Assembly (NCBI GenBank): GCA_000993955.1
Contig: LBZW01000001.1
Location: 1 to 42,447 of the forward strand
DNA from: Candidatus Nomurabacteria bacterium GW2011_GWA2_40_9
GTDB lineage: Bacteria; Patescibacteriota; Minisyncoccia; Phycocordibacterales; UBA9973
Length of the DNA stretch: 42,447 nucleotides
Direction of reading: 5' to 3'
Shown: in pieces, positions 1,946-36,869 of the stretch
How positions within the stretch are numbered: position 1 is the stretch's first letter
How the letters are laid out: the number at the start of each line of letters is the position of its first letter
Translations under genes and position numbers: made by a program
Notes under the pieces: model-generated
Told to the model about the DNA's origin: nothing
The model's input: the letters and a program-made list of their open reading frames with translations, nothing else
The model's database searches: none

Positions 1946-2908
1946 ATGAAGACAGAACAGAAGACAGTACACACAAGTGTTCTTTTAAAAGAAAGTATAG
2001 ACGGGCTGAATCTTAAGAAAAATCCCCAAAGCCTTGCTTCTGGAAATAATCTTGTAGTAATAGACGGTACATTTGGCGGAGGGGGACACAGTAGTGAGAT
2101 ATTAAAAAATTACCAAAATGTAAAAGTCATCGGTATAGATCAAGACAAGAGTGCATGGGAAAAGGCAAAAGATAAATTTGTAGGGTTGGAAGACAGGATT
2201 ACTTTTGTAAATGGAAATTTTCGAGACATAAAAGAAATTGTGGAAACTTCGGGTGTTGGACACCGAGATTCCAGGTGTCCAACACCCGAAGTAGATGGAG
2301 TATTACTTGATTTGGGACTCAGTTCTGATCAATTAGAGAATTCTGGTAGGGGATTTACTTTCATGAAAGATGAGCCGTTGTTTATGACTATGAAAGCAAA
2401 TCCAACATCTTCAGATTTAACGGCACAAGATATAGTAAATAATTGGAGCGAAGAAAATATAGCAAATATTATATATGGTTATGGTGAGGAGAGGTTTAGT
2501 AGAAGAATAGCAAGGCGGATAGTAGAAGCGAGGAAGGCAAAAGAGATAAAAACTACTTTTGAACTCGTAGAGATTATAAAAAATGCAGTGCCAAAAAAGT
2601 TTCAAAAAGGCAAGATAAATCCGGCTACAAAGACTTTTCAGGCATTGCGTATGGCAGTAAATGATGAATTGAATACTCTAGAGTCTGGGCTAAGTGGAGG
2701 GTTTGATATTTTAAAAAGCGGAGGCAGGCTGTCAGTCATATCATTCCACAGTCTCGAAGACCGGATAGTAAAGAATTTTTATAAAAAGAAAGTAGTAGAA
2801 GGCAAGGCAAAATTAATAAATAAGAAAATAATAACAGCAGGAAGTGAAGAATTGAAAACAAATAATAGATCAAGGAGTGCAAAATTAAGAATAATAGAGA
2901 AAATATGA
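1946..2908 (+). CDS. rsmH: 16S rRNA (cytosine1402-N4)-methyltransferase RsmH
   Basis: HTSVLLKESI, DGTFGGGGHS, VDGVLLDLGLSSDQLE, ISFHSLEDRIVK, NNRSRSAKLR. Start at the in-frame ATG 1946. Confidence 0.92.
   Translation: MKTEQKTVHTSVLLKESIDGLNLKKNPQSLASGNNLVVIDGTFGGGGHSSEILKNYQNVKVIGIDQDKSAWEKAKDKFVGLEDRITFVNGNFRDIKEIVETSGVGHRDSRCPTPEVDGVLLDLGLSSDQLENSGRGFTFMKDEPLFMTMKANPTSSDLTAQDIVNNWSEENIANIIYGYGEERFSRRIARRIVEARKAKEIKTTFELVEIIKNAVPKKFQKGKINPATKTFQALRMAVNDELNTLESGLSGGFDILKSGGRLSVISFHSLEDRIVKNFYKKKVVEGKAKLINKKIITAGSEELKTNNRSRSAKLRIIEKI
2024..2043. repeat. Palindromic element family C/G, single unit, in frame in rsmH
   Basis: CCCCAAAGCCTTGCTTCTGG is near-identical to the left arm of the atpG copy at 26613-26632. 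The preceding AAAATCCCCAAAGC also matches 26633-26646. Encodes NPQSLASG. Confidence 0.7.
2246..2292. repeat. Palindromic element family A, inverted dimer, in frame in rsmH
   Basis: ACTTCGGGTGTTGGACACC (2246-2264), 9-nt loop, GGTGTCCAACACCCGAAGT (2274-2292): a perfect 19-bp stem. Encodes ..TSGVGHRDSRCPTPEV.. just before the conserved DGVLLDLG. Confidence 0.9.
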
Positions 2909-3270
2909 ACGAAATAAAATTAAAAATGAAGAGTTATGCAAGTAATGTGAATATTATAGACAACAATGATGTAAAAAAACGCATACTAAATATTTTACTT
3001 GTATCTTTGGGTGGACTAGCACTCTTTTATCTTCTGATATTGAGTAATATGGTACTAAACATCATAGAACGCAGAACCCTAGAAGCTCATTCTCGTGTTA
3101 TATCAAATGAAGTTGCTAATTTAGAATTACAATATATAAATATATCAAGTTCTATTGATCTAAATTTATCTGCTACTTTCGGATTTAATGAAATTAAGCC
3201 AGATTTTGCTACACGAAAACCGCTTGGTTTGAATTCTAATACTGTAAAATTAGCGAAAAATGAAATCTAA
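2905..3270 (+). CDS. FtsL-like small bitopic membrane protein (positional call)
   Basis: 121 aa, one TM (ILNILLVSLGGLALFYLLILSNMV), then a coiled-coil-like segment. Lies between rsmH and ftsI with 4-bp and 11-bp overlaps. Confidence 0.4.
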   Translation: MNEIKLKMKSYASNVNIIDNNDVKKRILNILLVSLGGLALFYLLILSNMVLNIIERRTLEAHSRVISNEVANLELQYINISSSIDLNLSATFGFNEIKPDFATRKPLGLNSNTVKLAKNEI

Positions 3271-4993
3271 TAATTCTAACTTTACAAGTAGAACCAAAAT
3301 TTTCTCTTTGTGCTTGCTTTTTTTTGCTTTTATTTTGATAAGTAAACTTTTTTTAGTTTCTGTGGTGCATGGCAAGAGTTATTCTAGTATTGCAAATCGT
3401 CAATATGTGACCCCCTCTTCAAACATCTCGGAACGAGGGTCAATATTTTTCGAACGCAAAGATGGTGAGTTAGTTTCTGCTGCAATGCAGGCAGTAGGTT
3501 TTAAAGTCACTATAGATCCGAGTCAGATAGTAAATGACATAGAAGCATATGAAAAACTATCTACAATCATAGAGATAGATAGAGATGAATTTTTGATAAA
3601 AGCAGGCAAGAAAAAAGACCCCTATGAAGAGATAATAAATAAAATAACCAAAGAGCAAGCAGACAAAGTGGGAGCCTTAAAAATTTCTGGAGTAAAAATA
3701 TCAGAAGAAAAATGGCGTTTTTATCCAGGGGGAAATTTGGCTTCGCACACTTTGGGATTTGTGGCTTACGAGGGTGATGAACTCGGGGGGCGCTACGGCA
3801 TAGAGAGAGAGTATGAGAATGTTCTGTCACGAGACAAAGACAATCCGTATGTAAATTTCTTTGCAGAAGTGTTTTCCAATTTAAATAAAAGTTTGTTTGA
3901 AAAAGAAATAAAGAAGGGAGATATTATCACCACCATAGAGCCCAATGTAGAAAACTTTTTAGAAAATGAATTGGAACTAGTGAGAGAAAAATATCAAGCA
4001 GATGCGATAGGGGGGATAATCATAAATCCTATGGATGGCTCTATCTACGCTATTTCCAGCAAGCCGGATTTTGATTTAAATAATTTTTCAAAAGTAAAAG
4101 ATGCTTCTAGTTTTTCTAACCCCATGATAGAAAATGTGCTTGAATTTGGTTCTGTGGTAAAGCCTCTAGTGATGGCGGCGGCACTAGACACCGGTGTGGT
4201 GAATGCAAATACGAGCTACAATGACACTGGTTCTGTAATGATAGAGAAAAAAGAAATTTTTAATTTTGACAAAAAAGATCGTGGTCCGGGGACAACTATG
4301 CAGGATGTACTCAGTCAATCTCTAAACACAGGTATGGTATATGTCTATCAACAGTTAGGAAAAAAAAATATGCATGATTATATGTTGTCGTACGGTATCA
4401 AAGAAAAAACTGGCATAGATTTGCCAAATGAGACGAGTGGATTGGTGTCAAACCTCACAGCAAATTTAAATAATAAACGCGAGATAGAATACGCAAATGT
4501 TGCCTTTGGTCAGGGTATAGCACTCACTCCTATAGAGATGGTGCGGGCACTTGCTTCACTTTCAAATGGGGGGAACTTGGTTGTGCCTCATGTAGTAGAT
4601 AGAATAAAATACCAAAGTGGCAAAGAAGAAAAAATAATTTATCCTACATCTAAAACAAAAATAAGTGAACAAACCGCAGAAGAAATAACTCGAATGCTCG
4701 TAACTGTGATGGATAAATCCCTGAAAGGTGGACTTGCAAAATTTGAACACCATAGCGTAGCTGTAAAGACAGGTACGGCACAGGTTGCAGACAATGTAGG
4801 AGGAGGGTATTATGAAGACAGGCACACACATTCGTTTTTCGGATATTTCCCTGCCTATGACCCTAAATTTATAGTTTTCTTGTATGCAGTAAATCCAAAA
4901 GGCGTACCTTATGCTTCTGTTACTTGGGCAGATCCATTTTTAAATATTACTAAATTTCTGCTCAATTATTATGAAGTTCCACCGGATAGATAA
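3260..4993 (+). CDS. ftsI: Penicillin-binding protein 2/3-type transpeptidase (FtsI-like)
   Basis: N-terminal TM; SxxK (GSVVKP), SxN (SQSLNTG), KTG (VKTGTA); dcw context. Confidence 0.9.
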   Translation: MKSNNSNFTSRTKIFSLCLLFFAFILISKLFLVSVVHGKSYSSIANRQYVTPSSNISERGSIFFERKDGELVSAAMQAVGFKVTIDPSQIVNDIEAYEKLSTIIEIDRDEFLIKAGKKKDPYEEIINKITKEQADKVGALKISGVKISEEKWRFYPGGNLASHTLGFVAYEGDELGGRYGIEREYENVLSRDKDNPYVNFFAEVFSNLNKSLFEKEIKKGDIITTIEPNVENFLENELELVREKYQADAIGGIIINPMDGSIYAISSKPDFDLNNFSKVKDASSFSNPMIENVLEFGSVVKPLVMAAALDTGVVNANTSYNDTGSVMIEKKEIFNFDKKDRGPGTTMQDVLSQSLNTGMVYVYQQLGKKNMHDYMLSYGIKEKTGIDLPNETSGLVSNLTANLNNKREIEYANVAFGQGIALTPIEMVRALASLSNGGNLVVPHVVDRIKYQSGKEEKIIYPTSKTKISEQTAEEITRMLVTVMDKSLKGGLAKFEHHSVAVKTGTAQVADNVGGGYYEDRHTHSFFGYFPAYDPKFIVFLYAVNPKGVPYASVTWADPFLNITKFLLNYYEVPPDR

Positions 4994-5026: not shown

Positions 5027-6397
5027 ATGAAAATTTTTTTTAAAAAAATAATAATTTATATTTTACAATTAGAGTCACGATTAGTACTCAATAAATACAA
5101 GCCCAAAGTAGTGGCTATCACTGGATCTGTGGGCAAGACTTCTACAAAAGACGCAGTGTATGCTGTCCTATCAGAGTTTGCTTATGTTCGTAAAAGTGAA
5201 AAGAGCTACAATAGTCAAATAGGATTGCCACTCACTATACTCGGAGTTCCAAATGCTTGGAATAGTCCGACTATGTGGCTAAAAAACATTTTAAAAGGAT
5301 TATGGCTTGTCATCTGGCCACACAAATACCCCGAGTGGCTGATACTAGAAGTAGGAGTGGGCAAACCAGGAGATATGCAGGAAACTGCTTCGTGGCTTTC
5401 AACAGATGCTGTTATCATGACAGCGATAGGTGAAACTCCAGCACATATAGAATTCTTTAGTTCACGCAAACATTTGATAGAAGAAAAAAGCGGACTTATA
5501 AAAACTTTGAAAAAACCTGCCCGCAATGCTTCAGACATAGCTGATGCAGGCGGGGCTGGATTGCTTATCTTGAATGCAGATGATGAAGTGGTGTTGAGTA
5601 TGAAAAGTAAAACAAAAAATATAACAGTTACTTATGGTTTTCAAAAAGATTCTGACTTCTTGGCTTCCGAGGAGAGTATCTTGTATGTAAAAGAAGACGA
5701 AAATAAAACCAGAAGCAAGAGTATCCCTCAGGGTATAATGTTTCGTATAGATGAAGACGGTAGTAGTCTGCCGGTGGTGATAGAAGGAGTGTTTGGCAGA
5801 AATCATGTGTATGCTGCGCTCGCTGCGCTTGCGCTCGCTCATAATCTAAAGCTAAACATGATTCAAGCTATAAATTCGTTGAAAAATTACAAAGTCCCTC
5901 CTGGCAGGATGAGGCTCCTAACTGGAATAAAAAATACTCTTATCATAGATGATACTTACAATTCTTCGCCGTTTGCTTGCGAGTCTGCTCTCAAGACTAT
6001 AGGAGTTATAAATAAAGAATCAAAATTGAAGAACAGAAAGATAGCAATACTAGGAGATATGTTAGAACTAGGCAAATATACCGAAGAAGCACATAAAAAT
6101 ATAGGCAAATTGGCAAGAGAAAATATAGATGTGCTCGCAGTAGTCGGAGCTCGTGCAAAAGCTATCAAAGCTGGTGCATTGGAGGCAGGCTTTGATGACG
6201 AAAATATTTTTGAATTTATGACTTCGGTTGAGGCAGGAGAGTGGGTAAAAACTTTTATTAAAAAAGGGGATATTGTTTTGTTTAAGGGTTCCCAGGGTAT
6301 GCGTATGGAGCGGGCAGTAGAGGCTATACTAGAAGATCAAGAAAATAAGCACGATCTACTCGTCCGTCAAGACAAAGAGTGGCTGGATAAGAAATAA
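5027..6397 (+). CDS. murF: UDP-N-acetylmuramoyl-tripeptide--D-alanyl-D-alanine ligase MurF
   Basis: P-loop ITGSVGKTSTKD, LNADDE, DDTYNSSP, GDMLELG; dcw context. Confidence 0.85.
   Translation: MKIFFKKIIIYILQLESRLVLNKYKPKVVAITGSVGKTSTKDAVYAVLSEFAYVRKSEKSYNSQIGLPLTILGVPNAWNSPTMWLKNILKGLWLVIWPHKYPEWLILEVGVGKPGDMQETASWLSTDAVIMTAIGETPAHIEFFSSRKHLIEEKSGLIKTLKKPARNASDIADAGGAGLLILNADDEVVLSMKSKTKNITVTYGFQKDSDFLASEESILYVKEDENKTRSKSIPQGIMFRIDEDGSSLPVVIEGVFGRNHVYAALAALALAHNLKLNMIQAINSLKNYKVPPGRMRLLTGIKNTLIIDDTYNSSPFACESALKTIGVINKESKLKNRKIAILGDMLELGKYTEEAHKNIGKLARENIDVLAVVGARAKAIKAGALEAGFDDENIFEFMTSVEAGEWVKTFIKKGDIVLFKGSQGMRMERAVEAILEDQENKHDLLVRQDKEWLDKK
5516..5555. repeat. Palindromic element family D, in frame in murF
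   Basis: CCTGCCCGCAATGCTTCAGACATAGCTGATGCAGGCGGGG. The first 15 nt are identical to the atpG copy (26176-26190) and the 3' part is related (..CATAGC..TGCAGG.GGGG). Encodes PARNASDIADAGGAG. Confidence 0.8.
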
Positions 6398-12188: not shown

Positions 12189-13700
12189 ATGCAAGAAAAA
12201 AATTCTGAAAAATATTACACCACCATCGGGCTTGAAATACACGCAGAATTGAAGACAACTACAAAGATGTTTTGTAGTTGTAGAAATAACCCTGATGAAA
12301 CAAAACCAAATACAAATATCTGCCCTGTGTGCATGGCGCACCCTGGGGCATTGCCTGTAATAAATAAAAAAGCAGTTGAGAATGTGATAAGAGTTGGTCT
12401 GGCTATCGGTGCAGAGATTGCAGATTTTTCAGAATTTGATAGAAAGAATTATTTTTATCCCGACATCCCAAAAGGGTACCAGATTTCTCAATATAAATAC
12501 CCAATAGTAAAAGGTGGCAAACTAGCTGGTATGGATATCACTCGTATTCACTTAGAGGAAGATACAGCGAATAACAAACACCTGTCGGGTGTTGGACACC
12601 CGGAAATTCAGGACGAGTATTCACTCATTGACTTCAATCGTGCTGGCGTGCCACTGATGGAGCTTGTGACCGAGGCGCATACTTTTGAGACGAGTGAGGA
12701 GGCAGCAAAAGTTGCGAGTAATTTTGCAAAAGAATATCAGCTCCTCCTGCAGTATATAGATGCCTCAGAAGCGAATATGGAAAAAGGGGAGATGCGAGTG
12801 GAAGCAAATGTATCTGTCTCACCTGATAAAGATAAGAAATGGACTGCCTATGTGGAAGTAAAAAATTTAAACTCTTTCAAGAGCGTAGAAAAAGCTATCA
12901 AATATGAAGTAGAGCGAATGATAGAACTTTTTGAAGAAGGCAAAGAGAGTGAAATAGTAAAAGAAACTCGTGGCTTCGATGAAGCAAAGCAGAGGACTGT
13001 GTCTCAGCGTAAAAAGGAATCCAGTGAAGACTACAGATACTTCCCAGACCCAGACCTACCAAAGATGAAACTTCATGAAGCGTTTGATTTGGAAAAAGTG
13101 AAGCAAGAGTTACCTGAGTTGCCCATGCAAAAGCGCGTGCGATATAAGAATGATTTTGGAATAAAAGATGAAGATATAGAAATTTATATAAATGATAAAG
13201 AGCTTGCAAAATGGTTTGAAGAAGTTGCAAATCTTTTGTTTTCTCCCCCTGCCAGAGGGGGAGTGTCCGAAGGACGAGGGGGTGGGAGTGAAAAAATTAA
13301 AACAGCATCAAATTATATCACATCAGATTATTTGGGTATAAAGAAGTTCCAGCCAGAGGCAAGGCCTCTGGCTGCGACGAATTTTGCCGAGCTTATAAAT
13401 TTGGTTACAGAAAATAAAATCTCTTCTCGCGCTACAAAGGACATACTTGCGATGATAGTGATAGATGATGCGTCTCCATTAAAAATAGCAACAGAGAAAA
13501 ATTTGTTACAAAAAAATGATGAAGGCGAACTAAAAGGTATAGTAGAAAAAATACTTGCAGAAAATCAGCAAGTAGTGGCTACATACAAAGGCGGTAAAGA
13601 AAATGCTCTTATGTCCCTAGTGGGTAAAATAATAAAAGAAACAAATGGCTCTGCCAATCCACAGGTGGTAATTAAATTATTAAAAGAGTTGATAAAATAA
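12189..13700 (+). CDS. gatB: Asp/Glu-tRNA(Asn/Gln) amidotransferase subunit B
   Basis: GLEIHAEL, CPVCMAHPGALPV, RKNYFYPD, HLEEDT, FNRAGVPLMELVTE, and a C-terminal YqeY-like tail. TATAAT at 12175-12180 lies 8 nt before the ATG. Confidence 0.95.
   Translation: MQEKNSEKYYTTIGLEIHAELKTTTKMFCSCRNNPDETKPNTNICPVCMAHPGALPVINKKAVENVIRVGLAIGAEIADFSEFDRKNYFYPDIPKGYQISQYKYPIVKGGKLAGMDITRIHLEEDTANNKHLSGVGHPEIQDEYSLIDFNRAGVPLMELVTEAHTFETSEEAAKVASNFAKEYQLLLQYIDASEANMEKGEMRVEANVSVSPDKDKKWTAYVEVKNLNSFKSVEKAIKYEVERMIELFEEGKESEIVKETRGFDEAKQRTVSQRKKESSEDYRYFPDPDLPKMKLHEAFDLEKVKQELPELPMQKRVRYKNDFGIKDEDIEIYINDKELAKWFEEVANLLFSPPARGGVSEGRGGGSEKIKTASNYITSDYLGIKKFQPEARPLAATNFAELINLVTENKISSRATKDILAMIVIDDASPLKIATEKNLLQKNDEGELKGIVEKILAENQQVVATYKGGKENALMSLVGKIIKETNGSANPQVVIKLLKELIK
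12585..12603. repeat. Palindromic element family A, single unit, in frame in gatB
   Basis: TCGGGTGTTGGACACCCGG: a 7-bp stem. Matches the reverse complement of the intergenic copy 32881-32899 at 18 of 19 positions. Encodes LSGVGHPE between HLEEDT and the conserved YSLIDFNR. Confidence 0.85.
13243..13283. repeat. Palindromic element family E, in frame in gatB
   Basis: CTCCCCC-TGCCAGA-GGGGGAG-TG-TCC-GAA-GGA-CG-AGGGGGT. Same 41-nt architecture as 15025-15065 on the other strand. Encodes SPPARGGVSEGRGGGS. Confidence 0.85.
13350..13374. repeat. Palindromic element family C, single unit, in frame in gatB
   Basis: CAGCCAGAGGC-AAG-GCCTCTGGCTG: an 11-bp perfect stem. Encodes QPEARPLAA. Confidence 0.9.
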
Positions 13701-13707: not shown

Positions 13708-13737
13708 CCTCCGCCGAAACGGAGGAGTGCCGAAGCA
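13708..13737. repeat. E-like double hairpin just downstream of the gatB stop
   Basis: CCTCCG-CCGAAA-CGGAGG-AG-TGC-CGAA-GCA. Same two-hairpin layout as family E (a pyrimidine/purine stem, then a small GAA-loop hairpin). Confidence 0.6.
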
Positions 13738-21322: not shown

Positions 21323-21679
21323 ATGGCTACAAAGCTATATGTAGGGGGACTCCCTTACAGTACACAAGAAGATGCTCTACGAGAACTCTTCGCACAAGCA
21401 GGTTCTGTCACATCTGCTGTGATTATCATGGACAAAATGTCTGGTCGCTCAAAAGGTTTCGGATTCGTAGAAATGGCTAATGATGCAGATGCACAAAAAG
21501 CTATCTCTATGTTCAACGACCAAGAATTTGAAGGACGCAAACTCACAGTCAACGAAGCTCGCCCTATGGAAGCTCGCCCACCACGAACAGGTGGAAATGG
21601 CGGTGGATACGGAGGAGGCAATAGTCATGGAGGAGGAGGGTATGGAGGAGGCCGCTCAGGTGGACGCCGAGAATACTAA
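21323..21679 (+). CDS. RRM-type RNA-binding protein with Gly/Arg-rich tail
   Basis: RNP-2 LYVGGL, RNP-1 KGFGFVEM, and a GGNGGGYGGG..RSGGRR tail. Start at ATG 21323, preceded by GGAG. Confidence 0.9.
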   Translation: MATKLYVGGLPYSTQEDALRELFAQAGSVTSAVIIMDKMSGRSKGFGFVEMANDADAQKAISMFNDQEFEGRKLTVNEARPMEARPPRTGGNGGGYGGGNSHGGGGYGGGRSGGRREY

Positions 21680-22038: not shown

Positions 22039-22329
22039 ATGGAAACAGAAAATTCAAAAAACAATAGTGCTATTTGGAGACCTGTGATTCTTTTTTATGC
22101 CAAGACAACATCTTGGATTATATTTCCGTTGATTTTAGGAGTATTGCTTGCAAAATATATCAGCAAAACTACTAGCAGTCAGATTTTATTTTTTGTTATA
22201 ATAATTTTGGGTTTTATGATAACATGTTTTGGTATTTATAAAGAAGTGAAAGTATATAAAAGTACTTTAGATAAACAAGACCCACCTTCGCACAAGGCTA
22301 CGGATGGGCAAGTAAAAAATGGCAAATAA
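22039..22329 (+). CDS. Small 2-TM protein, AtpI/AtpZ-like by position
   Basis: 96 aa, two hydrophobic helices. Lies immediately upstream of and overlapping atpB. Confidence 0.4.
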   Translation: METENSKNNSAIWRPVILFYAKTTSWIIFPLILGVLLAKYISKTTSSQILFFVIIILGFMITCFGIYKEVKVYKSTLDKQDPPSHKATDGQVKNGK

Positions 22330-23221
22330 TTTAGAACATAATGGAGAGGTAGTAGAGGAGACAAGTCACGAAGTGACTATCTATGCAGAGCCGATTTTTC
22401 ATGTGGGTAATTTTGCTATCACAAACTCGCTTTTTACTACTTGGCTTGCAGTGCTTTTGATTGCTATATTTTCTCTCGTTATCCGATTAAATCTCAAAAA
22501 AGTTCCAGGGAAATTACAAAATATTTTTGAAGTTATGCTCGAGGGTGCTATGTCTCTCACTGATCAAGTCACAAATGACAGAAAAATAACGAATAAAATT
22601 TTTCCTTTAGTATTTTCTCTTTTTGTATTTATTTTAATAAATAATTGGATCGGGCTTTTGCCTTTTATTTCTGCTATTGGTTTTACGGTTGTTGAAAGTG
22701 GGCAAAATGTTTTTGTTCCTCTTTTTCGTGCGGGGACTGCGGATATCAACACCACCCTTGCTTTGTCGCTTATGATCATTGTCGCTTCAAATCTATTTGG
22801 CATACTCACTATCGGGCTCTGGAAACTTTTTAATAAATATGTTAATCTAAAAGCACTTGGTGAGATATTTACCAAGTTTAAAAAGGACAAGACTGTGGTC
22901 ATCGTATCTCCAATTTCTGTGTTTGTAGGGTTGCTTGAACTCATAGGAGAAATGGCAAAAATCGCATCGCTTTCTTTTCGTCTTTTTGGTAATGTTTTTG
23001 CAGGAGAAGTATTGCTCGCTTCTATGTCGGCAATATTTTTGTATATTTTACCGGGGCCGTTTTTGTTCCTTGAAGTTTTCATAGGACTCATTCAAGCATT
23101 GATATTTTCTTTGCTTGGGGCTGTGTATTTTACCATCGCAGCGCAGGATCATAATGAACACGAGGAGTATGAAACGGTGAGAGCTTTAGACTCTCATGAG
23201 AGTCTAAAGCTCTCACCGTAA
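22319..23221 (+). CDS. atpB: F0F1 ATP synthase subunit a
   Basis: Multi-TM, with the conserved Arg helix LSFRLFGNVFAGE. The C-terminal 15 aa are encoded by palindrome B. Confidence 0.9.
   Translation: MANNLEHNGEVVEETSHEVTIYAEPIFHVGNFAITNSLFTTWLAVLLIAIFSLVIRLNLKKVPGKLQNIFEVMLEGAMSLTDQVTNDRKITNKIFPLVFSLFVFILINNWIGLLPFISAIGFTVVESGQNVFVPLFRAGTADINTTLALSLMIIVASNLFGILTIGLWKLFNKYVNLKALGEIFTKFKKDKTVVIVSPISVFVGLLELIGEMAKIASLSFRLFGNVFAGEVLLASMSAIFLYILPGPFLFLEVFIGLIQALIFSLLGAVYFTIAAQDHNEHEEYETVRALDSHESLKLSP
23175..23218. repeat. Palindromic element family B forming the 3' end of atpB
   Basis: CGGTGAGAGCTTTAGACTCTC-AT-GAGAGTCTAAAGCTCTCACCG: a 44-nt perfect palindrome ending 0 nt before the TAA stop. 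Encodes TVRALDSHESLKLSP. Confidence 0.92.
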
Positions 23222-23975: not shown

Positions 23976-24386
23976 ATGCAGAAAATTTCTCCAAAAAATA
24001 TTGCAGAGGCAGTGTATGAAGCTACTGAGGGCAAGAGCACAGCTGAGCAAGAGCTTATATTGAAACGCACGGTGCATATTTTACAGGACAAAAGATTACT
24101 TGGTAAATCAAAATATATTTTGGAAGCCTTGCAAAATATTATCGATAAAAAAACAAATACAGTCAGACTCAAAGTAATTACAGCAAAAATATTGAGTAAA
24201 GAAGATCAAGCAAAGATTGAAAATGAAACAAAAATAAAGTACAAGGGAGATAAAGTAATAAGTGAATTTTTTGTAAAAGGTGAATTATTGGGGGGGGTGC
24301 GGGTCGAAGTGGGGGATGAAGTATTAGACACGACATACAAAAACAAACTTCAAAAGCTAGAAAAGTTTTTAATACAAAGTAAATAA
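23976..24386 (+). CDS. atpH: F0F1 ATP synthase subunit delta (short, OSCP family)
   Basis: C-terminal ..GELLGGVRVEVGDEVLDTTYKNKLQKL matches the delta/OSCP signature. 136 aa is shorter than usual. Confidence 0.78.
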   Translation: MQKISPKNIAEAVYEATEGKSTAEQELILKRTVHILQDKRLLGKSKYILEALQNIIDKKTNTVRLKVITAKILSKEDQAKIENETKIKYKGDKVISEFFVKGELLGGVRVEVGDEVLDTTYKNKLQKLEKFLIQSK

Positions 24387-24388
24387 AG

Positions 24389-24414
24389 TCCCGATGTAAA
24401 GTCGGGATCCCGAC
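24389..24414. repeat. Three-arm palindrome in the atpH-atpA spacer
   Basis: TCCCGA-TGTAAAG-TCGGGA-TCCCGAC. Arm 2 can pair with arm 1 (6 bp) or arm 3 (GTCGGGATCCCGAC is a 14-nt perfect palindrome). Confidence 0.8.
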
Positions 24415-24441
24415 CAAAAGCATTGGGAAAAAATAAAATAT

Positions 24442-25944
24442 ATGTCAAATCATATTGTAGAAAATTTAAGAAAAGAAATAGAAGCTTTCAAAATAGAAAC
24501 AAAGGGAGAGTTGGTGGGCAAGGTAGTAGAAGTCTTCGATGGTATTGCTAAATGTTCTGGACTGTCTGATGTAAAGTCAGGGGAGATGGTGACATTTGCA
24601 GGTGGGGAGACAGGTGTGGTTTTAAACCTCGAAGAAGACACCGTGGGTATTATCATTCTTTCAGATTTTTCAAAGATTAAAGAAGGGGATGAAGTGAAAG
24701 CTACTGACCGTATCCTCGAAGTACCTGTGGGAGAAGCACAGATAGGAAGAGTACTCAATGCGCTCGGTGCGCCGATAGACGGCAAAGGTGATGTAAAAAC
24801 ATCAAGTGCACAGCCTATAGAAAAAGTGGCATCTGGAGTGGTCACACGACAAGGGGTAGATCAGCCAGTTGCTACTGGTATCAAGGCTATCGATGCATTG
24901 ATCCCTATCGGTCGTGGACAGCGCGAACTCATCATCGGAGACAGGCAGACAGGTAAGACTGCCATCGCTATTGACACAATTTTAAATCAAAAAGGTCAAA
25001 ACATGATCTGTGTATATGTATCGATCGGTCAAAAAGACTCTAAACTTCGCAAACTCCAGACTCGCCTCGAAGAAGGGGGTGCGATGGACTACACTATCAT
25101 CGTCTCTGCGGGTAGTTCTGAGCCAGCAGCTCTCTCATACATCGCTCCTTATACTGGAGTCTCTATTGCTGAGTATTTTATGGATCAGGGCAAGGATGTG
25201 TTGATTATTTACGATGATTTGTCCAAGCACGCTGTAGCATATCGAGAAATTTCACTGCTTCTTCGCCGACCACCAGGACGCGAAGCATATCCGGGAGACG
25301 TGTTTTACTTACACTCTAGGCTCCTTGAACGTGCATGCCGAAAAAATGAAAAATACGGCGGAGGATCTATCACTACGCTTCCAATTATTGAAACTCAAGC
25401 AGGAGATATCTCTGCATATATTCCTACAAATGTGATTTCTATTACCGACGGACAGATATTCCTCGAGACTGATTTATTTTATAAAGGTGTTCGTCCTGCA
25501 GTAAATGTCGGATTCTCTGTATCTCGAGTGGGTTCATCTGCGCAGATCAAAGCTATGAAAAAAGTAGCTGGAACTCTCAAGCTCGACCTTGCACAATTTC
25601 GAGAACTCGAAGCTTTTGCACAATTCGGCTCTGACCTAGATGATGCCACAAAGGCACAACTCGAACGCGGGAAGCGTGCAGTGGAAGTTCTAAAACAGCC
25701 ACAATATTCTCCAGTCGTTATCGAACGCCAAGTTGTCACTTTGTATGCACTTACCCGAGGCTACATGGACGATGTGCCACTAAACAAGATAAAAGAATTT
25801 GAATCTGGACTCATAGAATATGCAGAGAGAAATGCAAAAACTTTCTTGAGTGAAGTTATTGAAAAGAAAATGTGGTCTGATGTTGGGGAAGAAGAATTAA
25901 AAAAAGCGATAGCAGACTTTAAAACTAACTTTTTAACTTTATAA
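24442..25944 (+). CDS. atpA: F0F1 ATP synthase subunit alpha
   Basis: Walker [38 protein letters not shown]. Confidence 0.97.
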
Positions 25945-25968
25945 CTTTTGACTTTATAAACTTATTAT

Positions 25969-26916
25969 ATGACCGGAACAAAAGAAATTAAAAGAAGAAT
26001 AAAGAGTGTGAAGAACACAAAGAAGATAACCAAGGCGATGGAGCTAGTGGCTGCTTCGAAGATGAAGCGCGCAGTTTCTAAGACTCTCGCATCTCGTGTG
26101 TATGCAAATTATTCTTGGGAGCTTTTGACTTCTGTTTCAGCAAAACTTGAAGAGGTGACACACCCATTTTTTACTCCTGCCCGCAATGCTACGCATAGCG
26201 TTGCAGGTGGGGAAAATAAAACAGGTAAAACTTTGATAGTTCTCATCACTTCAAACAGAGGTTTGTGCGGAGCGTACAATTCTCAAGTCATCAAGAAAAC
26301 TATTTTAAAACTAAAATCTTTAGAAAATGAAGAAGTTGATTTCATAACCCTTGGCAAAAAAGGCGACGGCACTATGCGCAGAGTAGGGCAGAATATCGTG
26401 GCATCTTTTATTGAATTGCCAGATATTATTTCTTTATCTGATATCACAGCTGTGTCTAACTTTTTAACTAGTGAATATAAAATAGGAAATTATAAAAAAG
26501 TCTATGTGGCATATACAGACTTTGTATCAGCACTGACTCAAAAAGCACAGATCAGAAAGCTCTTGCCAGTGTCTAAAGAAGAATTGAAAGAAGTAATAGA
26601 CGGTCTAGATTCCCCCAAAGCCTTGCTTTTGGAAAATCCCCAAAGCAAGGCTTTGGGGTCAACATATTTGTTCGAAGGTGATATAAATAAACTCATAGAA
26701 ACGCTGGCAGAAAAACTAGTAAAGATGCAGATATATCAGATGTTGTTAGAGTCCAATGCTTCCGAACAGTCAAGCAGAATGCTTTCAATGAAAAATGCCG
26801 GAGACGCAGCAGGAGAGATGATCAATGATTTGACCTTGGTATTCAACAAAGCAAGACAGGCAAATATTACCAGAGAAATAAGTGAGATTAGTGCCGGTAT
26901 GGCAAGTGTGAGTTGA
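25969..26916 (+). CDS. atpG: F0F1 ATP synthase subunit gamma
   Basis: IKRRIKSVKNTKKITKAMELVAASKM N-terminus and NKARQANITREISEI C-terminus. Contains two inserted palindromes. Confidence 0.95.
   Translation: MTGTKEIKRRIKSVKNTKKITKAMELVAASKMKRAVSKTLASRVYANYSWELLTSVSAKLEEVTHPFFTPARNATHSVAGGENKTGKTLIVLITSNRGLCGAYNSQVIKKTILKLKSLENEEVDFITLGKKGDGTMRRVGQNIVASFIELPDIISLSDITAVSNFLTSEYKIGNYKKVYVAYTDFVSALTQKAQIRKLLPVSKEELKEVIDGLDSPKALLLENPQSKALGSTYLFEGDINKLIETLAEKLVKMQIYQMLLESNASEQSSRMLSMKNAGDAAGEMINDLTLVFNKARQANITREISEISAGMASVS
26176..26212. repeat. Palindromic element family D, in frame in atpG
   Basis: CCTGCCCGCAATGCT-ACGCAT-AGCGTTGCAGGTGGGG. Folds on the sense strand with 14 pairs, 3 of them G-U. 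Encodes PARNATHSVAGGE. Confidence 0.8.
26613..26658. repeat. Palindromic element family C/G, inverted dimer, in frame in atpG
   Basis: CCCCAAAGCCTTGCTTTTGG-AAAATCC-CCAAAGCAAGGCTTTGGGG: a 19-bp stem with one bulged T. Encodes SPKALLLENPQSKALG. Confidence 0.88.
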
Positions 26917-26930
26917 TCGCCCGTAGCCTC

Positions 26931-26959
26931 GGGGGAGATGTCCGAAGGGCAGAGGGGGT
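26931..26959. repeat. Family E core, intergenic between atpG and atpD
   Basis: GGGGGAG-ATG-TCC-GAA-GGG-CA-GAGGGGGT, 15 nt after the atpG stop. Compare gatB GGGGGAG-TG-TCC-GAA-GGA-CG-AGGGGGT. Confidence 0.8.
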
Positions 26960-26991
26960 CTGAATAAAATTATTAAAAAATTATCAGTTAA

Positions 26992-28389
<1,398 letters not shown>

Positions 28390-28390: not shown

Positions 28391-28420
28391 AAAGTCTCTG
28401 CCTGATAGGGCAGAGACTTT
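28391..28420 (+). terminator. Hairpin directly after the atpD stop (weak intrinsic terminator)
   Basis: AAAGTCTCTGCC-TGATAG-GGCAGAGACTTT: a 12-bp stem with only a short T-run. A second hairpin GCTCTCTAT-N18-ATAGAGAGC lies at 28424-28459. Confidence 0.5.
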
Positions 28421-28549: not shown

Positions 28550-29029
28550 ATGTCAAAGCAATTAAAACTAAAAATAGTAACTCCAGAAAAATTGGTTCTA
28601 GAAGAGCTTGTTGATGAAGTGATTATCCCTACTACAGAAGGGGAGATTGCTGTGTTGCCTGAACACATACCTATAGTTGCTGGACTCAAATCAGGAGATG
28701 TTGTCGGCATAGTAAACGGCGAGCATATTCCTTTTGCTGTCGTTGGAGGGTTCGTAGAAGTGAAATATTTACCAGAGGCAAGGCCTCTGTCTGCCAGAGG
28801 CCTTGCCTCTGGTATTACTGAAGTAGTGATTCTCGCTGATTTTGCAGAACATGTATCAGAACTTTCTGATGATGCTGTAACAAAAGCAAAAGCTCGTGCC
28901 GAAGAACTACGCAAACAAGCAGAAAACAAAGAAGTAGTAGACTTTGAACACTTTGAGTCCGAACTCGAGCGCGCTCTAACCAGAGTCAAAATCGCTGACA
29001 AGTGGAGAACTAGAAAGTATAGGAAATAA
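28550..29029 (+). CDS. atpC: F0F1 ATP synthase subunit epsilon
   Basis: LKIVTPEKLV..VIIPTTEGEIAVLPEHIPIVAGLKSG.., GGFVEV.., and a C-terminal helical hairpin. Carries a 15-codon palindrome insertion. Confidence 0.88.
   Translation: MSKQLKLKIVTPEKLVLEELVDEVIIPTTEGEIAVLPEHIPIVAGLKSGDVVGIVNGEHIPFAVVGGFVEVKYLPEARPLSARGLASGITEVVILADFAEHVSELSDDAVTKAKARAEELRKQAENKEVVDFEHFESELERALTRVKIADKWRTRKYRK
28770..28814. repeat. Palindromic element family C, inverted dimer, exactly 15 codons, in frame in atpC
   Basis: TACCAGAGGCAAGGCCTCTG-TCTGC-CAGAGGCCTTGCCTCTGGTA: a 20-bp perfect stem. Each arm contains the gatB unit CCAGAGGC-AAG-GCCTCTG. Encodes (Y)LPEARPLSARGLASG(I). Confidence 0.92.
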
Positions 29030-29794: not shown

Positions 29795-31777
29795 TTACAG
29801 CAAATTTTCTGGATCTATCAGCACTCTAAAATTAGAAGATATTTTATTTAAAGACAAAAGTTTTCTATAGAGGTCTTCCTCGATAGAAGCAGATGCAGAG
29901 AGTATAGGCAAAGACCATTTTTTAGGATCTGCTTTTATTAACATATTTACTGTATTTTTGTCTTTACTACTCTTTCTGAAACCACTGTAAAATACAGGGT
30001 TGTAATCTTTGAATATTTCACTCAAATTTTCTTTTGTCTTAGATGAATCTGTGTTGCTTTCTAAATAAGTAACTTTGATAAATCTAGAATATGGGGGATA
30101 GAGCATAGATTTTCTGTCTTCGAGTTCAGTCCTGATAAATTCTAATAGATTACTATTTTTTATGGCAAGCAGTGCCGAGTCTTTGTCGTTCTTTGTTTGG
30201 ATTATCAATTTATTTTTTGTTTTAGAAAGCATCAGGAGTATGAGTTGAATTATTTTTTCACTCATTTTAAAATTTGGGATACTCCAGAGTGAATCAAAAG
30301 AAGCAACGATACAGGTGTCTATTTGGTTTTTCATATAAAAAAGTGCTATCTCTGTGCCTATGAGTATAGTATTTTCTCCTGTCTCATATTCTGTAATTAT
30401 CTTTAGAGCACCCTTGGCTGTCTTTGCTGTGTCTTTGTCTAGTTTTAATATTTTAATGTGATCTAATTTTTCTTTTTTTAATTCTTCATACACTGTATCT
30501 ATACCTATGCCGAGTGGTACCAGATTCCAACTGTCGCATTTTACACATTTAACCTTCGTATTTTTGCTTGTGCCACATCTGTTGCAGACAAATACTCTCT
30601 TTTTTTTGTCTGGAGAGTGGTGCAGGACAACAGGAGTGGAGCATTCATCACAGCTTACTGTTTCTCCGCAATCTCTACATATAGTATAAGTAGCCAGCCC
30701 TTTTCGAAGAGAGAAAATAAAAACTTTCTCTTTTTGTTCTAGAGCACTTTTCAATTCTGCTATAGTTTCAGTCATCAACACCTTAAATTTGTTTTTTCTA
30801 CTCAATATTTCTATTTTTCCATCAAAAGAAATACGAAAAGACATGGGATGAACTTCCCCTAGTCCGTCTATCTCACGCCTAGCTATACTTTCAAAGCGTA
30901 AGAGGCTATCCGCCAAGATAAATTTTGCATTTATTTTAGAAGCAAAAATTTCAGTAAAAATTCGTAAATCAAAGTAGGGTTTGGCTATCATTTTATACCC
31001 ATTTCCGCTCTCGTGTTCTAAAATAATTGTTTCTATATCTCTTCTGTCTATAGATAGGTATGGGGCAGTACCGATAATCAAAATTGGATGCTCTTCTTTT
31101 ATGATATTTTCTATCTTTTCCATTTGTTTCTTTGCACTATACCCTCCATGGATAGAAATAGTAAATTGTTCAATACCCTTGGACAGGTACCCATACCAGT
31201 CGTCTATGTCATTTTTAGTGGGTAGTACTATAAAAACTGATTTTTTTTTAGCAAAATTACTTCTGATTAGGATTTTATAATAATCTATACGTTCTTCCAG
31301 TTTAGCTTGAAACAATAATTTTTCATTTTTTATCAGTGAGAGCTTTAGACTCTCTCTAGAGTCTAAAGCTCTCACTGAAAGTTCTTCTTTGTTTTGTTCA
31401 TTTTTTAATAGCTTGTTTTTAATTAATTCAGCAAATCTATCGTATTCTTCTTTTAAAATATTTGGGATGAGAGATGTGACCCCGTCGCTGTTGTTTTGAA
31501 CAAAATATTTACTACACAAAAACACAGATTCTAGAAATTCAGATTTAAAAATAGAGCCCTCTTTTATACTAAGTATTTTCTTTAGATTAAAATCCATGTC
31601 TTTTATATTTCTCTTTGCGTCAGTTACGTCTTCGGTAAAGACTACTAACCCCAACATGTTTTTATTGCGGAGAGATATAGTAACGATACTCCCATTTGGT
31701 ATGTCTTTTATTGAAAAATAGGTTAAATTTTCTTTCCAAAGTCCTTTTCTGAATGGGATTACCGTAACTATTTTCAT
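29795..31777 (-). CDS. priA: PriA-like primosomal protein N' with degenerate ATPase motifs
   Basis: PriA architecture with the Cys-rich Zn module (CRDCGETVSCDECSTPVV..CNRCG..CVKCDS). The expected Walker A, DExH and motif VI positions read LFQAKLEERIDYY, ILEHESGNGYK and LLMLSKTKNK. Confidence 0.75.
   Translation of the reverse strand: MKIVTVIPFRKGLWKENLTYFSIKDIPNGSIVTISLRNKNMLGLVVFTEDVTDAKRNIKDMDFNLKKILSIKEGSIFKSEFLESVFLCSKYFVQNNSDGVTSLIPNILKEEYDRFAELIKNKLLKNEQNKEELSVRALDSRESLKLSLIKNEKLLFQAKLEERIDYYKILIRSNFAKKKSVFIVLPTKNDIDDWYGYLSKGIEQFTISIHGGYSAKKQMEKIENIIKEEHPILIIGTAPYLSIDRRDIETIILEHESGNGYKMIAKPYFDLRIFTEIFASKINAKFILADSLLRFESIARREIDGLGEVHPMSFRISFDGKIEILSRKNKFKVLMTETIAELKSALEQKEKVFIFSLRKGLATYTICRDCGETVSCDECSTPVVLHHSPDKKKRVFVCNRCGTSKNTKVKCVKCDSWNLVPLGIGIDTVYEELKKEKLDHIKILKLDKDTAKTAKGALKIITEYETGENTILIGTEIALFYMKNQIDTCIVASFDSLWSIPNFKMSEKIIQLILLMLSKTKNKLIIQTKNDKDSALLAIKNSNLLEFIRTELEDRKSMLYPPYSRFIKVTYLESNTDSSKTKENLSEIFKDYNPVFYSGFRKSSKDKNTVNMLIKADPKKWSLPILSASASIEEDLYRKLLSLNKISSNFRVLIDPENLL
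31333..31378. repeat. Palindromic element family B, in frame in priA
   Basis: TCAGTGAGAGCTTTAGACTCT-CTCT-AGAGTCTAAAGCTCTCACTGA: a 21-bp perfect stem. The core GTGAGAGCTTTAGACTCT is identical to the atpB copy. On the minus strand it encodes SVRALDSRESLKLSL. Confidence 0.92.
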
Positions 31778-32880: not shown

Positions 32881-32899
32881 TCGGGTGTCCAACACCCGA
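32881..32899. repeat. Palindromic element family A, single unit, intergenic between mreB and holB
   Basis: TCGGGTGTCCAACACCCGA, 5 nt after the mreB stop. Matches the reverse complement of the gatB copy at 18 of 19 positions. Confidence 0.85.
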
Positions 32900-35391: not shown

Positions 35392-35417
35392 CAAAATATA
35401 AGTTAAAGATAAATTAG

Positions 35418-36803
35418 CTAAAGTATTTCACTATCTTTTACCTCATAACCTAGGTCGTTTATTTCTTTTCTTAACGCATCTGATTTTTGAAAGTTTTTAT
35501 TTTTGCGTGCGTTTTCTCGTTCTGTTACGAGTAGTTGTATTGCGTTTGGTATAGGCTCGTTTTCCCAGCCCGAGACTGGTCCGCCTTGGGCGGAAAAGTT
35601 GAGGCCGAGCACTCTGTCAAAGTCTAATATAGTAGCTTTTTTATTAGCATTTAAAATATTTTCATCTTTTATTAAATCCCAAAGAAGAGAAAGTGCTCGA
35701 GATGTATCTAAATCATTTTCTATGCGTTCTTTGAATTTTTGTTTATAATTCTCGTCTGTTTTGCCCATCTCTTCTCCTAGTTGATTATAAAGTCTATACA
35801 AGCGTTTCAAGGCTATTTCAGAAGCTTCCAGAGCCTCAAAGCTAAAGTTCATTTTTGTATGGTAGCTCGCCATCAGGAGCCAAAATCTGTAAGTAATAGG
35901 GGATATACCTTTTTCTATCAGTGTGTCTAGTCTCAAAAAATTACCCTCTGACTTTGCCATTTTGTTTCCACCTGTGTCTATGAATTCGTGATGCATCCAA
36001 AAACGCACAAAAGGTTTTTTGCCTGTAGCAGATTCTGATTGAGCTATCTCGTTTGTGTGGTGTATGGGTATGTGGTCTATGCCTCCTGTATGTATGTCAA
36101 ACTGTTCGCCTAGGAATTTTATTCCCATAGCAGAACACTCGATATGCCAGCCCGGGAACCCCTTGCCAAAAGGAGACTCATAGCCAAGTTTTGAATCTAG
36201 TTTCCACAAAGCAAAATCTATAGGTCTTTTTTTCTCACCAGTTTGTGTTATTCGAGCACCTTCTATGTCCCACTCTAATATTTCTTTTCCAATAAGCTTT
36301 CCATAATCCGCACATTTTTCTGTATCAAAATAAATTCCATCACTTGTTTTGTATGTGTAGCCTTTTTCTTCTAGTCTCTGTATTAGTGCTATGTCTTCTG
36401 CTACATAATCACTCGCAAAGTATTGCCCATCGGGCATCTCTATGTTTAACCGTTCTAAATCATGGTTGAATTTTTCTGTATAAAATTCTGCCATCTCACG
36501 CATGTTTTGGAGAGTCAGTTCTTTGCCTTCACGCAGGAGGCCTTTTGTCATCTTGTCATCTCCTGCGTCTGCATCAGATACCAGGTGGCCTATGTCTGTG
36601 ATATTCATGACTTGTTTTACTTCGTATCCAGAGTATTTGATAGTTCGTCTCAAAATATCTGCAAATACATAAGAGCGTAGATTACCTATGTGTGCAAAAT
36701 AATAAACCGTCGGACCGCAGGTATACATTCGCACTTCGTTTGCATCTATTGGTACAAATTCTTCTTTTTCTTTGGTTAATGTATTAAAAAATTTTAAAGG
36801 CAT
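35418..36803 (-). CDS. cysS: Cysteine--tRNA ligase
   Basis: HIGNLRSY (HIGH), KMAKSEGN (KMSKS), and the CGPTVY / WHIECS zinc ligand regions. Confidence 0.95.
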   Translation of the reverse strand: MPLKFFNTLTKEKEEFVPIDANEVRMYTCGPTVYYFAHIGNLRSYVFADILRRTIKYSGYEVKQVMNITDIGHLVSDADAGDDKMTKGLLREGKELTLQNMREMAEFYTEKFNHDLERLNIEMPDGQYFASDYVAEDIALIQRLEEKGYTYKTSDGIYFDTEKCADYGKLIGKEILEWDIEGARITQTGEKKRPIDFALWKLDSKLGYESPFGKGFPGWHIECSAMGIKFLGEQFDIHTGGIDHIPIHHTNEIAQSESATGKKPFVRFWMHHEFIDTGGNKMAKSEGNFLRLDTLIEKGISPITYRFWLLMASYHTKMNFSFEALEASEIALKRLYRLYNQLGEEMGKTDENYKQKFKERIENDLDTSRALSLLWDLIKDENILNANKKATILDFDRVLGLNFSAQGGPVSGWENEPIPNAIQLLVTERENARKNKNFQKSDALRKEINDLGYEVKDSEIL

Positions 36804-36813
36804 AGATTATTGT

Positions 36814-36869
36814 TCCACATGTCGGACATAGGGTCGGTCATTTTTTTTAGTCCCTATGTCCGACATGTG
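36814..36869. repeat. 56-nt palindrome (family F) in the perM-cysS spacer
   Basis: CCACATGTCGGACATAGGG (36814-36832), 18-nt loop, CCCTATGTCCGACATGTGG (36851-36869): a perfect 19-bp stem. Each arm contains the near-palindrome ATGTC(G/C)GACAT. Confidence 0.9.

Follow-up and report, generated by a model that had tools for sequence, protein, structure and literature searches.

Short GC-rich palindromes in frame within housekeeping genes of a Nomurabacteria genome resemble elements associated with Y1 transposase genes

Palindrome families in a housekeeping gene region

The stretch of DNA analyzed here (the window) comprises 42,447 nucleotides of contig LBZW01000001.1 from Candidatus Nomurabacteria bacterium GW2011_GWA2_40_9, a member of the Patescibacteria or candidate phyla radiation (CPR), and our subject is a set of short GC-rich palindromes that lie in it, many of them in frame inside conserved genes. 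The window has a G+C content of ~37%. Pfam and NCBIfam, which also served to assign the host genes of the palindromes, identified a housekeeping stretch of the dcw/atp/gatB type with rsmH, a penicillin-binding protein gene (PBP), murF, rmuC, obg, gatB, fba, a gene for an FAD-linked oxidase, the atpBEFHAGDC operon, priA, mreB, cysS and an AI-2E transporter gene. The nearest GatB and AtpG homologues were labelled Candidatus Nomurabacteria, Pacebacteria or Patescibacteria.

The window contained 21 perfect GC-rich hairpins (stem of at least 8 bp, loop of at most 10), whereas 20 dinucleotide-shuffled versions of it averaged 1.65. A census of 47 Patescibacteria loci (376 kb) by strict GC hairpin criteria found 83 hairpin loci against 3.7 in simulated sequence, and the hairpin excess over shuffles or simulations was ~13- to 20-fold. 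Recurring 14-mers, more than 200 nt apart and on either strand, numbered 128 in the window and 12-31 in Markov simulations. A mismatch-tolerant scan returned 20 non-overlapping loci. The initial annotation, made from the sequence and its open reading frames (ORFs), had described about 20 palindromes in recurring families, and its coordinates and shared peptides were reproduced. Known RNA families were rejected as an explanation: Rfam (gathering threshold) and ARAGORN gave only two tRNAs in the window, and no palindrome overlapped any Rfam family or tRNA.

The palindromes were sorted into families A to G (Table 1). A single unit is a GC-rich hairpin of 17-25 nt, and the inverted dimers found in families A to D can fold as one long or two short hairpins. 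The same strings of 17-25 nt recurred, letter for letter, in genes unrelated to each other and between genes. The loop and its closing pairs (GC-AAG-GC) are common to family C, family D and several variants, with covarying stems. Strict hairpin criteria placed 6 of 7 window loci inside genes, and the full catalogue ~15 of ~22. In the related loci, 20 of 48 family A copies and 18 of 35 other hairpins were intragenic, so that ~40-50% lay in ORFs of at least 150 amino acids. GC-rich, strongly folding intragenic islands were also seen in cysS (35553-35612, minus strand, with TCCGCCTTGGGCGGA) and in a gene with an SLT domain (18250-18346), and the Gly/Arg-rich low-complexity tail of an RRM-like ORF (21553-21676) is a native GC-rich island outside the palindrome families.

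The hosts and peptides listed in the initial annotation (SGVGH, VRALDS[HR]ESLKLS, PEARPL, PARNA, EGRGGG and NPQS) were recovered in the window proteins named there, and all intragenic window copies are open in the host frame; a third hairpin in the FAD-linked oxidase gene (14846-14874) had been overlooked. Families A, C and D have no stop codon in any of the six frames. In family B, stops interrupt 4 of 6 frames; the family is open only in the frame used, in both window copies. The claim that each family is always read in the same frame held within the window and failed across genomes, where family A encoded SGV[GQ]HP in 25 of 35 long-ORF cases and was read in other frames in the remainder. 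On these counts, selection on the peptide is the best explanation for the frame bias of family A, and the frame and stop statistics suggest that the inserts are translated.

Table 1. Palindrome families, individual elements and the Y1 transposase gene in the window. TIR, terminal inverted repeat; REPIN, doublet of repetitive extragenic palindromic (REP) sequences forming a hairpin. L001, L029, L110 and L149 are related loci described in the text.
Feature	Location	Positions	Strand	Sequence or peptide	Remark
Family A		2246-2292, 12586-12602, 32881-32899		TCGGGTGTTGGACACC	inverted dimer at 2246-2292
Family B		23174-23219, 31333-31378		GTGAGAGCTTTAGACTCT	both copies inverted dimers
Family C		13350-13374, 28770-28814		CCAGAGGCAAGGCCTCTG	inverted dimer at 28770-28814
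Family D		2024-2043, 26613-26658		CCCCAAAGCCTTGC	inverted dimer at 26613-26658
Family E		13239-13286, 14977-15068, 27316-27354		CTCCCCCT..AGGGGGAG + GGGGGTGG tail	
Family F		36815-36870			
Family G		5516-5560, 26176-26212		CCTGCCCGCAATGCT	
Left TIR	window Y1 gene	492-509	+	AAGGGGACAGCCACCATT	18 nt, contains GGGGWSAS
Y1 (HUH) transposase gene, RAYT-like, TIR-flanked (TIRYT) type		543-1217	+		Pfam Y1_Tnp 53 bits
Right TIR	window Y1 gene	1226-1292	-		twice (1226-1243, 1275-1292), in a 49-nt duplication
Family D monomer	rsmH	2024-2043	+	..KKNPQSLASG..	9-aa gap vs E. coli RsmH (3tka)
Family A inverted dimer, REPIN-like	rsmH	2246-2292	+	TSGVGHRDSRCPTPE	9-aa gap vs T. maritima MraW
Family G imperfect palindrome	murF	5516-5560	+	PARNASDIADAGGAG	in L001 with ~5 substitutions
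Family A remnant (left unit and spacer, right unit deleted)	gatB site 1	12583-12613	+	LSGVGHPEIQ	
Family E element	gatB site 2	13239-13286	+	FSPPARGGVSEGRGGG	net 42-nt insertion
Family C 25-nt palindrome	gatB site 3	13350-13374	+	QPEARPLA	no added length
Hairpin, terminator-like	intergenic, just 3' of gatB	13708-13728	+	ACCTCCGCCGAAACGGAGGAG	absent or different in L001
Hairpin, C/D-like CAAG loop	FAD-linked oxidase gene	14846-14874	+	GGTAGGCAAGACCTACC	region variable vs L110
Compound family E block, four adjacent hairpins	FAD-linked oxidase gene, FAD-binding domain	14977-15068	+		-55 kcal/mol over 92 nt
GC-rich in-frame insert, 24 nt	small ORF upstream of atpB	22279-22302	+		window-specific; indel vs L149
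Family B perfect 46-nt palindrome	C-terminal tail of atpB	23174-23219	+	TVRALDSHESLKLSP-stop	
Insert, 50 nt, with palindrome	intergenic, atpH/atpA	24381-24430	+	GTCGGGATCCCGAC	window-specific
Family G element	atpG	26176-26212	+	PARNATHSVAGG	clean 36-nt indel vs L149, window only
Family D inverted dimer	atpG	26613-26658	+	SPKALLLENPQSKALG	
GC-rich hairpin-forming island	intergenic, atpG/atpD	26908-26965	+		
GC-rich in-frame insert, 21 nt	atpD, N-terminal barrel	27098-27118	+	PSTSSGQ	window-specific; indel vs L149
Family E element	atpD	27316-27354	+		replaces AGKINSQKT of L149, +12 nt
Hairpin, terminator-like	directly 3' of atpD	28391-28420	+		unrelated hairpin at same place in L149
Family C inverted dimer	between two atpC domains	28770-28814	+	PEARPLSARGLASG	-40 kcal/mol
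Family B inverted dimer	priA	31333-31378	-	SVRALDSRESLKLSL	clean 15-aa (45-nt) insertion vs L029 PriA
Family A monomer	intergenic, 5 nt past mreB stop	32881-32899	undefined		orthologous copy after mreB in L029
Family F long hairpin	intergenic, cysS/AI-2E transporter gene	36815-36870	undefined		

Insertion, decay and exchange at the host sites

The palindrome sites were compared with three related loci: a syntenic contig of JGI sample 3300025150 with ~84% nucleotide identity to the window (L001/L184), a second syntenic contig of the same sample with ~79-81% identity (L149), and a locus from a metagenome-assembled genome (MAG) with only ~70% identity (L029), which was the source of the priA and mreB comparison. 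Protein alignments included 27 GatB and 27 AtpG homologues, and solved structures from the PDB were used for distant comparison. In the comparisons with L001, L149 and L029, every indel between a filled and an empty site was a multiple of three nucleotides. The initial annotation had predicted presence/absence polymorphism between close relatives, which was seen against all three loci and among the homologues. It had also taken the palindromes to be insertions. This was borne out for most of them by clean in-frame indels relative to PDB sequences and syntenic orthologues, but not for the PEARPL copy in gatB. Judged from these alignments, most window palindromes are insertions in variable loops. 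Identical elements were present at identical sites in independent ENA, JGI and NCBI assemblies, so the palindromes are not the assembly artefact that the initial annotation had named as one way in which its reading could fail.

The family A dimer in rsmH was identical in L001 at 47 of 47 positions, with flanks only ~85% identical. Position 1 of the 24.8-kb L001 contig falls exactly on this dimer (window position 2246), which suggests that palindromes break metagenome assemblies. The PDB alignment of murF was interrupted exactly at residue 165, the site of the family G element, and that of the FAD-linked oxidase picked up again directly after the family E block; both alignments are fragmentary and the indel borders in them imprecise. 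At the position of the family E block, locus L110 has an AT-rich loop that is 8 amino acids shorter.

The atp operon showed a similar variety. The family B palindrome of atpB is situated past the Pfam ATP-synt_A domain and is also present, minus 3 nt, in L149. The family G element of atpG is patchy: it is absent from the closest homologues and occurs at the same site in P0151, P0154, P0191 and P0199. At the family D site of atpG, L149 has a different, C-like dimer (ACGGAGGCCTTGCCTCCGT..), and among relatives this linker is hypervariable. A family A hairpin in atpG and a C-like hairpin of 33 nt in priA were found in L149 only. In atpD, the PSTSSGQ insert and the family E element correspond to gaps of 6 and 4 amino acids, respectively, relative to the solved beta subunit 2qe7_D. 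The family C dimer of atpC, which has Pfam domains on either side (5-72 and 111-149), corresponds to a 14-amino acid gap relative to solved epsilon subunits, and L149 keeps both of its units with the first loop flipped. Separately, the atpA/atpG interval of L149 (~3800-4480; window 25933-25964) contains ~650 nt of extra DNA that is missing from the window and starts with an ATG-led stretch, MSRIKDKNKHIALFEGNKVRRVW.

The gatB gene contains three sites of different character. At site 1, a full family A dimer is present in L104, L110 and L078, the window is without the right unit and L001 without part of the left; by this comparison, the site is a decay series from one old insertion. The units kept by the window and by L001 have opposite loop orientation. 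The element at site 2 is absent in L001 and in every homologue of at most 86% identity. Relative to solved structures, the gaps are 9 amino acids at site 1 and ~16 at site 2. In an AlphaFold2 model based on the GatB alignment, with a mean predicted local distance difference test (pLDDT) score of 79, residues 129-147 (site 1) and 354-363 (site 2) were modelled as coil with pLDDT below 50, consistent with the placement in surface loops expected in the initial annotation. Site 1 and two sites in atpG are insertion hot spots, occupied across many lineages by different hairpin peptides (A, D-like and F-like); other lineages encode the family F peptide signature HMSDIG in frame within gatB and atpG (P0009, P0155). 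One GatB homologue with 93% identity (P0002) keeps the family E and C segments and is without 31 residues (ELPELP..INDK) that are present in all others, which could be a real deletion or a problem of gene calling or assembly.

At site 3, the sole difference between the window and L001 is an inverted 3-nt loop. L078 has the same hairpin with two compensated stem pairs (ACGGAAGCAAGGCTTCCGT), and L110 has a family A hairpin of equal length in the same 33-nt slot. The clade consensus in the homologue alignment is PEAxLPS. Loop flips between the window and a relative, with unchanged stems, were thus seen both here and in unit 1 of atpC. The slot patterns suggest either that hairpins are exchanged for, or converted by, one another in place, or that their structure is under selection. 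In intergenic DNA, the family A copy after mreB has a counterpart in L029 (~3396) at a nucleotide identity of ~70%, from which it appears to have been kept for a long time, and this hairpin is possibly a terminator.

Related genomes and Y1 transposase genes

The initial annotation had predicted that copies would be found beyond the window, and this was confirmed for family A in dozens of Patescibacteria MAG loci and for family C on contigs of the relative's metagenome. A scan of GTDB representative genomes with the family A core, a 16-mer, matched at least 115 stretches. At least 49 of these were low-GC stretches, nearly all from MAGs of Nomurabacteria, Paceibacterota or Patescibacteria and with several copies per MAG, and their copies are complete hairpins with the consensus YGTCGGGTGT-TGG-ACACCCGACR. 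The remaining matches listed were single, came from high-GC taxa and were not hairpins. Viral contigs were rejected as carriers: all 7 of their 16-mer matches were high-GC and none was a hairpin, so they were regarded as chance matches and served as a negative control. Dimers of family A were numerous in other genomes. The terminal tag of the family A arms is YGTC overall; among 118 arms, 36 had CGTC and 43 had TGTC. According to Pfam, family A hosts elsewhere include Mur ligases, PurH, LepA, TopA, a NifS-like aminotransferase, PurL and GatB. Family C was found on at least 7 contigs of the relative's metagenome and on more than 20 low-GC contigs overall. An exact search of the family A loci for families B, D, E and F found no copy, and family E-like stems (CCCCTCCT) recurred in the hairpin census.

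Matches of the family C 18-mer in high-GC gut and soil contigs were set aside as unrelated repeat systems. In the gut contigs (~60% G+C; L126, L127, L135, L139, L146, L160-L162, L170, L186, L191), the 18-mer lies amid an array of different hairpins (GGTCAAGGGACGAAGTCCCTTG.. CCAGAGGCAAGGCCTCTGG.. GTCAAGGGGCAAAGCCCCTTGGG) in ORFs of 470-570 amino acids, and these seem to be an unrelated example of hairpin arrays that are translated. A conserved element of ~75 nt (GGGATGACCAAGTTTCTGCTGAGGAGAGCAGAGGCCTTGCCTCTGGGGTAATTTGTGCCCCCCAGGCCCCTTTG) was seen in L125, L130, L132, L133, L140, L145 and ~15 more Ga01539xx contigs of one sample series.

A tblastn search of the related loci with the Y1 protein of the window as query identified Y1 homologues that adjoin hairpins. 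Family A was present on both sides of Y1 genes of 219-221 amino acids in L010, L012, L021, L031, L095, L118 and L123; these genes are 75-83% identical to each other, and their hairpins lie ~150 nt upstream and just past the stop. Family C flanks Y1 genes in L134/L180 and L148/L152. The flanks of other Y1 genes were a GTAG-tagged CTTGTAGACGTTAAACGTCTACAAG (L075), TTGCTAGGTCTTGCCTAGCAA (L018/L069) and CCACTTGGAGGTTCTTCCTCCAAGTG (L065). A Y1 gene bracketed by hairpins is the defining arrangement ("REPtron") of REP sequences and their REP-associated tyrosine transposase (RAYT). For families A and C, this bracketing in related genomes supports the link to a RAYT-like enzyme that the initial annotation had put forward hypothetically. 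The hairpin-flanked Y1 proteins retain the HUH motif and the Y-x3-N motif, and 4 of 5 matched Pfam Y1_Tnp above the gathering score. Some RAYT-like genes contain their own flanking hairpin in frame (L031, 671-1330; L123; L134; L148/L152), at two positions: it precedes the HUH motif in L134 and in the A-type genes, and is a clean 12-amino acid insert after HUH in L148/L152.

The Y1 gene of the window is of a different type. Its protein scored 67.6 bits against REP_Tyr_transpos (NCBIfam cut-off 80) and is 26-38% identical to the hairpin-flanked RAYT-like genes. In TIRtrons, a Y1 gene lies between long TIRs with a GGGGWSAS motif (PMC3733652), and TIRYT genes constitute subclass 2.1 (Quentin 2018, PMC6006769); the window gene resembles them in its 18-nt inverted repeats with GGGGACAG and in a C-terminal extension past the Y1 core. 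No further copy of the TIR (GGGGACAGCCACC) was found in the window, nor in the related loci (376 kb). As the initial annotation had noted, the flanks of this gene differ from the palindrome families; since its TIRs are unrelated to families A-G, it is not their cognate enzyme. In the segment 1196-1340, the 49-nt duplication is followed by tandem repeats of 8-9 nt (CCCTTATTCC..), and then by a GC hairpin at 1329-1360.

Origin and significance of the palindromes

The palindromes resemble the REP/REPIN–RAYT systems of Proteobacteria in that they are dispersed, short, GC-rich and imperfect and form head-to-head doublets (Nunvar 2010; Bertels & Rainey 2011, PMC3116915; Ton-Hoang 2012, PMC3333891). 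The resemblance extends to a Y1 HUH gene bracketed by its own hairpins, to several families with different cognate enzymes in related genomes, and to copies that persist by vertical descent at orthologous sites. Most classical REPs lie outside genes and carry a GTAG tag. In contrast, the host here is a CPR bacterium, ~40-50% of the copies in related loci and most in the window are intragenic and in frame, and families A-G have no GTAG tag, family A ending in YGTC. Further differences are Y1 proteins of ~220 amino acids that score below the NCBIfam cut-off for RAYTs, and in-frame hairpin copies inside the RAYT-like genes themselves.

For the coding habit, the initial annotation had pointed to the Rickettsia palindromic elements (RPEs), which lie in frame in Rickettsia genes (Ogata et al. 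2000, 2002). The analogy is sound, but it is not the only one: intragenic GTAG/CGTC REPs occur in Opitutus terrae, R. conorii, Thauera and others (Di Nocera et al. 2013, PMC3733652), and the CGTC REPs are reported to lack a dedicated transposase (PMC3733652). As in these cases, the elements described here lie in frame in unrelated housekeeping genes, are compatible with function, occur as monomers and dimers of ~6-30 amino acids, sometimes with more than one insert per gene, and belong to multiple families in a reduced genome. The CGTC-like terminal tag of family A is a feature of RPE-4 and RPE-6 as well. RPE-1 is ~100-150 bp long and restricted to Rickettsia, whereas the present elements measure 17-47 nt and belong to another phylum; judged by host phylum and length, we regard them as an analogue of the RPEs and not as a member. 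We know of no transposase for RPEs. Unlike RPEs and CGTC REPs, the CGTC-like family A brackets a RAYT-like gene, and this combination may be a new point. A parallel also exists in mitochondria, where accounts of mobile GC clusters and double-hairpin elements (fungi, sponges, nematomorphs) describe GC-rich hairpins that invade AT-rich compact genomes, coding regions included, and are translated. To our knowledge, and as far as these accounts go, such elements are organellar, have no associated Y1 transposase and form unrelated sequence families. Full-text literature searches turned up no paper in which REPs, RAYTs or palindromic repeats are described for CPR, Patescibacteria or Parcubacteria.

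We consider it likely that the palindromes are non-autonomous elements of the REP/REPIN type that were spread by RAYT-like Y1 transposases and survived within genes by filtering. The initial interpretation is thus supported, with the corrections given above: the finding is a REP/REPIN–RAYT system that resembles RPEs in its coding habit, is new for its phylum and has an unusually high intragenic fraction. For each hairpin family of the clade there would be a cognate RAYT-like Y1 (HUH) transposase acting on single-stranded DNA, its gene flanked on both sides by hairpins of that family. Like E. coli TnpA-REP and the IS200/IS605 family, with which we draw the analogy, the enzyme would recognize the folded hairpin on single-stranded DNA, cut and rejoin it, and so spread copies in trans. 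As the genome is small and gene-dense, many insertions would fall inside genes, and selection would retain those of 3n nucleotides that are stop-free in the host frame and lie in tolerant surface loops or domain linkers. Unrelated essential proteins would share hairpin-encoded peptides as a result of this filtering. The later fate of a copy would be vertical inheritance, internal deletion between repeated arms, loop flips and, at some slots, replacement or stem compensation.

Several observations weigh against this reading. The links to Y1 genes concern families A and C, and families B, D, E, F and G were tied to no transposase. The window contains no cognate RAYT, its sole Y1 gene having unrelated TIR flanks, and the only NCBIfam match of the hairpin-flanked Y1 proteins, REP_Tyr_transpos, reached 24-49 bits at a cut-off of 80. 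The mainly extragenic placement of classical REPs was found neither in the window nor in the related loci, and a terminal tag is present on family A only, families B, C, D, E and G being without a GTAG or CGTC tag. At the filled and empty sites compared with L001, L149 and L029 there was no target-site duplication and no target-site signature. The missing duplication, together with the fact that the elements are whole hairpins and not TIR-bounded units, led us to reject miniature inverted-repeat transposable elements. Finally, no relative differs in length at gatB site 3, and yet the slot is filled by family C, by a stem-compensated C-like hairpin or by family A, and atpD and the FAD-linked oxidase show partial replacement; neither is predicted by simple cut-and-paste insertion.

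These in-place copies without change of length, with different families in one slot, are what would be expected if hairpins were spread or maintained mainly by gene conversion, microhomology-mediated template switching and snap-back synthesis at replication forks, with the RAYT association arising from accumulation of hairpins near those genes. The different family at the same atpG site in L149, the loop-only inversions at all three shared sites and the contrast between the identical rsmH dimer and its diverged flanks, which suggests homogenisation, fit such templated spread as well, as does the existence of CGTC-type REPs reported without a dedicated transposase (PMC3733652). However, Y1 genes of at least 5 different lineages are each bracketed on both sides by their own specific hairpin family in many genomes, which makes passive accumulation unlikely, and the clean insertions at sites without prior similarity (atpG, priA, atpC) require a transfer mechanism beyond conversion. 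We therefore judge templated spread as the main process to be improbable.

Host-selected signals, i.e. DNA uptake sequences, mRNA stabilizers, sites of translational pausing at domain borders, or sites bound by nucleoid proteins or topoisomerases, would offer a non-selfish origin. Retention of orthologous hairpins over large divergence (after mreB in L029, and in different species at gatB site 1), the compensated stem pairs of gatB site 3, the terminator-like intergenic copies at gene 3' ends and the location of several intragenic copies at domain boundaries would all suit a host function. Against it stand the patchy presence and absence even among close relatives, the decay in situ and the bracketing of a transposase gene, and we give this origin little chance. 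Uptake sequences in particular, as one motif in hundreds of copies, do not match many unrelated families of modest copy number, and were rejected as the main explanation on account of these low-copy families, their patchiness and their position around a transposase gene. Least of all can the palindromes be ancestral, lineage-specific GC-rich protein sequence, assembly artefacts or chance matches. It is true that PEAxLPS at gatB site 3 is common to the whole clade and that some GC-rich islands are native Gly-rich motifs (Obg and the RGG tail at 21553-21676), but the identical strings in unrelated genes and intergenic DNA, the hairpin excess, the lack of the segments in distant as well as close orthologues and the agreement of the ENA, JGI and NCBI assemblies largely refute this possibility.

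A RAYT-mediated origin could also be taken further. Fixed slots in loops of essential proteins, exchange between families, flips and compensation at constant protein length, and in-frame copies in the transposase genes themselves might point to a phylum-specific REP–RAYT radiation in Paceibacteria/Nomurabacteria whose main niche is coding sequence, an extension that we put forward tentatively and would not presume to be correct. If it were true, the indels by which CPR proteins evolve would stem in large part from hairpin transposition, and the missing dedicated transposase for CGTC-type (RPE-4/6-like) REPs would be supplied.

After Rickettsia and a few REP-rich bacteria, these ultra-small, uncultured CPR bacteria are a second independent lineage in which selfish palindromes are tolerated in essential proteins. 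The RPE-like coding habit is here tied to an enzyme class, the RAYT-like Y1 transposases, so that mobilization becomes testable in vitro. In practical terms, such elements break assemblies, make proteins look more divergent than they are and give unrelated proteins peptides that they share spuriously. The exchange and compensatory stems at gatB site 3 constitute a natural experiment, in which selection or conversion works on the structure of DNA or RNA within a reading frame, and the elements as a whole mark insertion-tolerant loops in ATP synthase, GatB, RsmH, PriA, Mur ligases, TopA and LepA.

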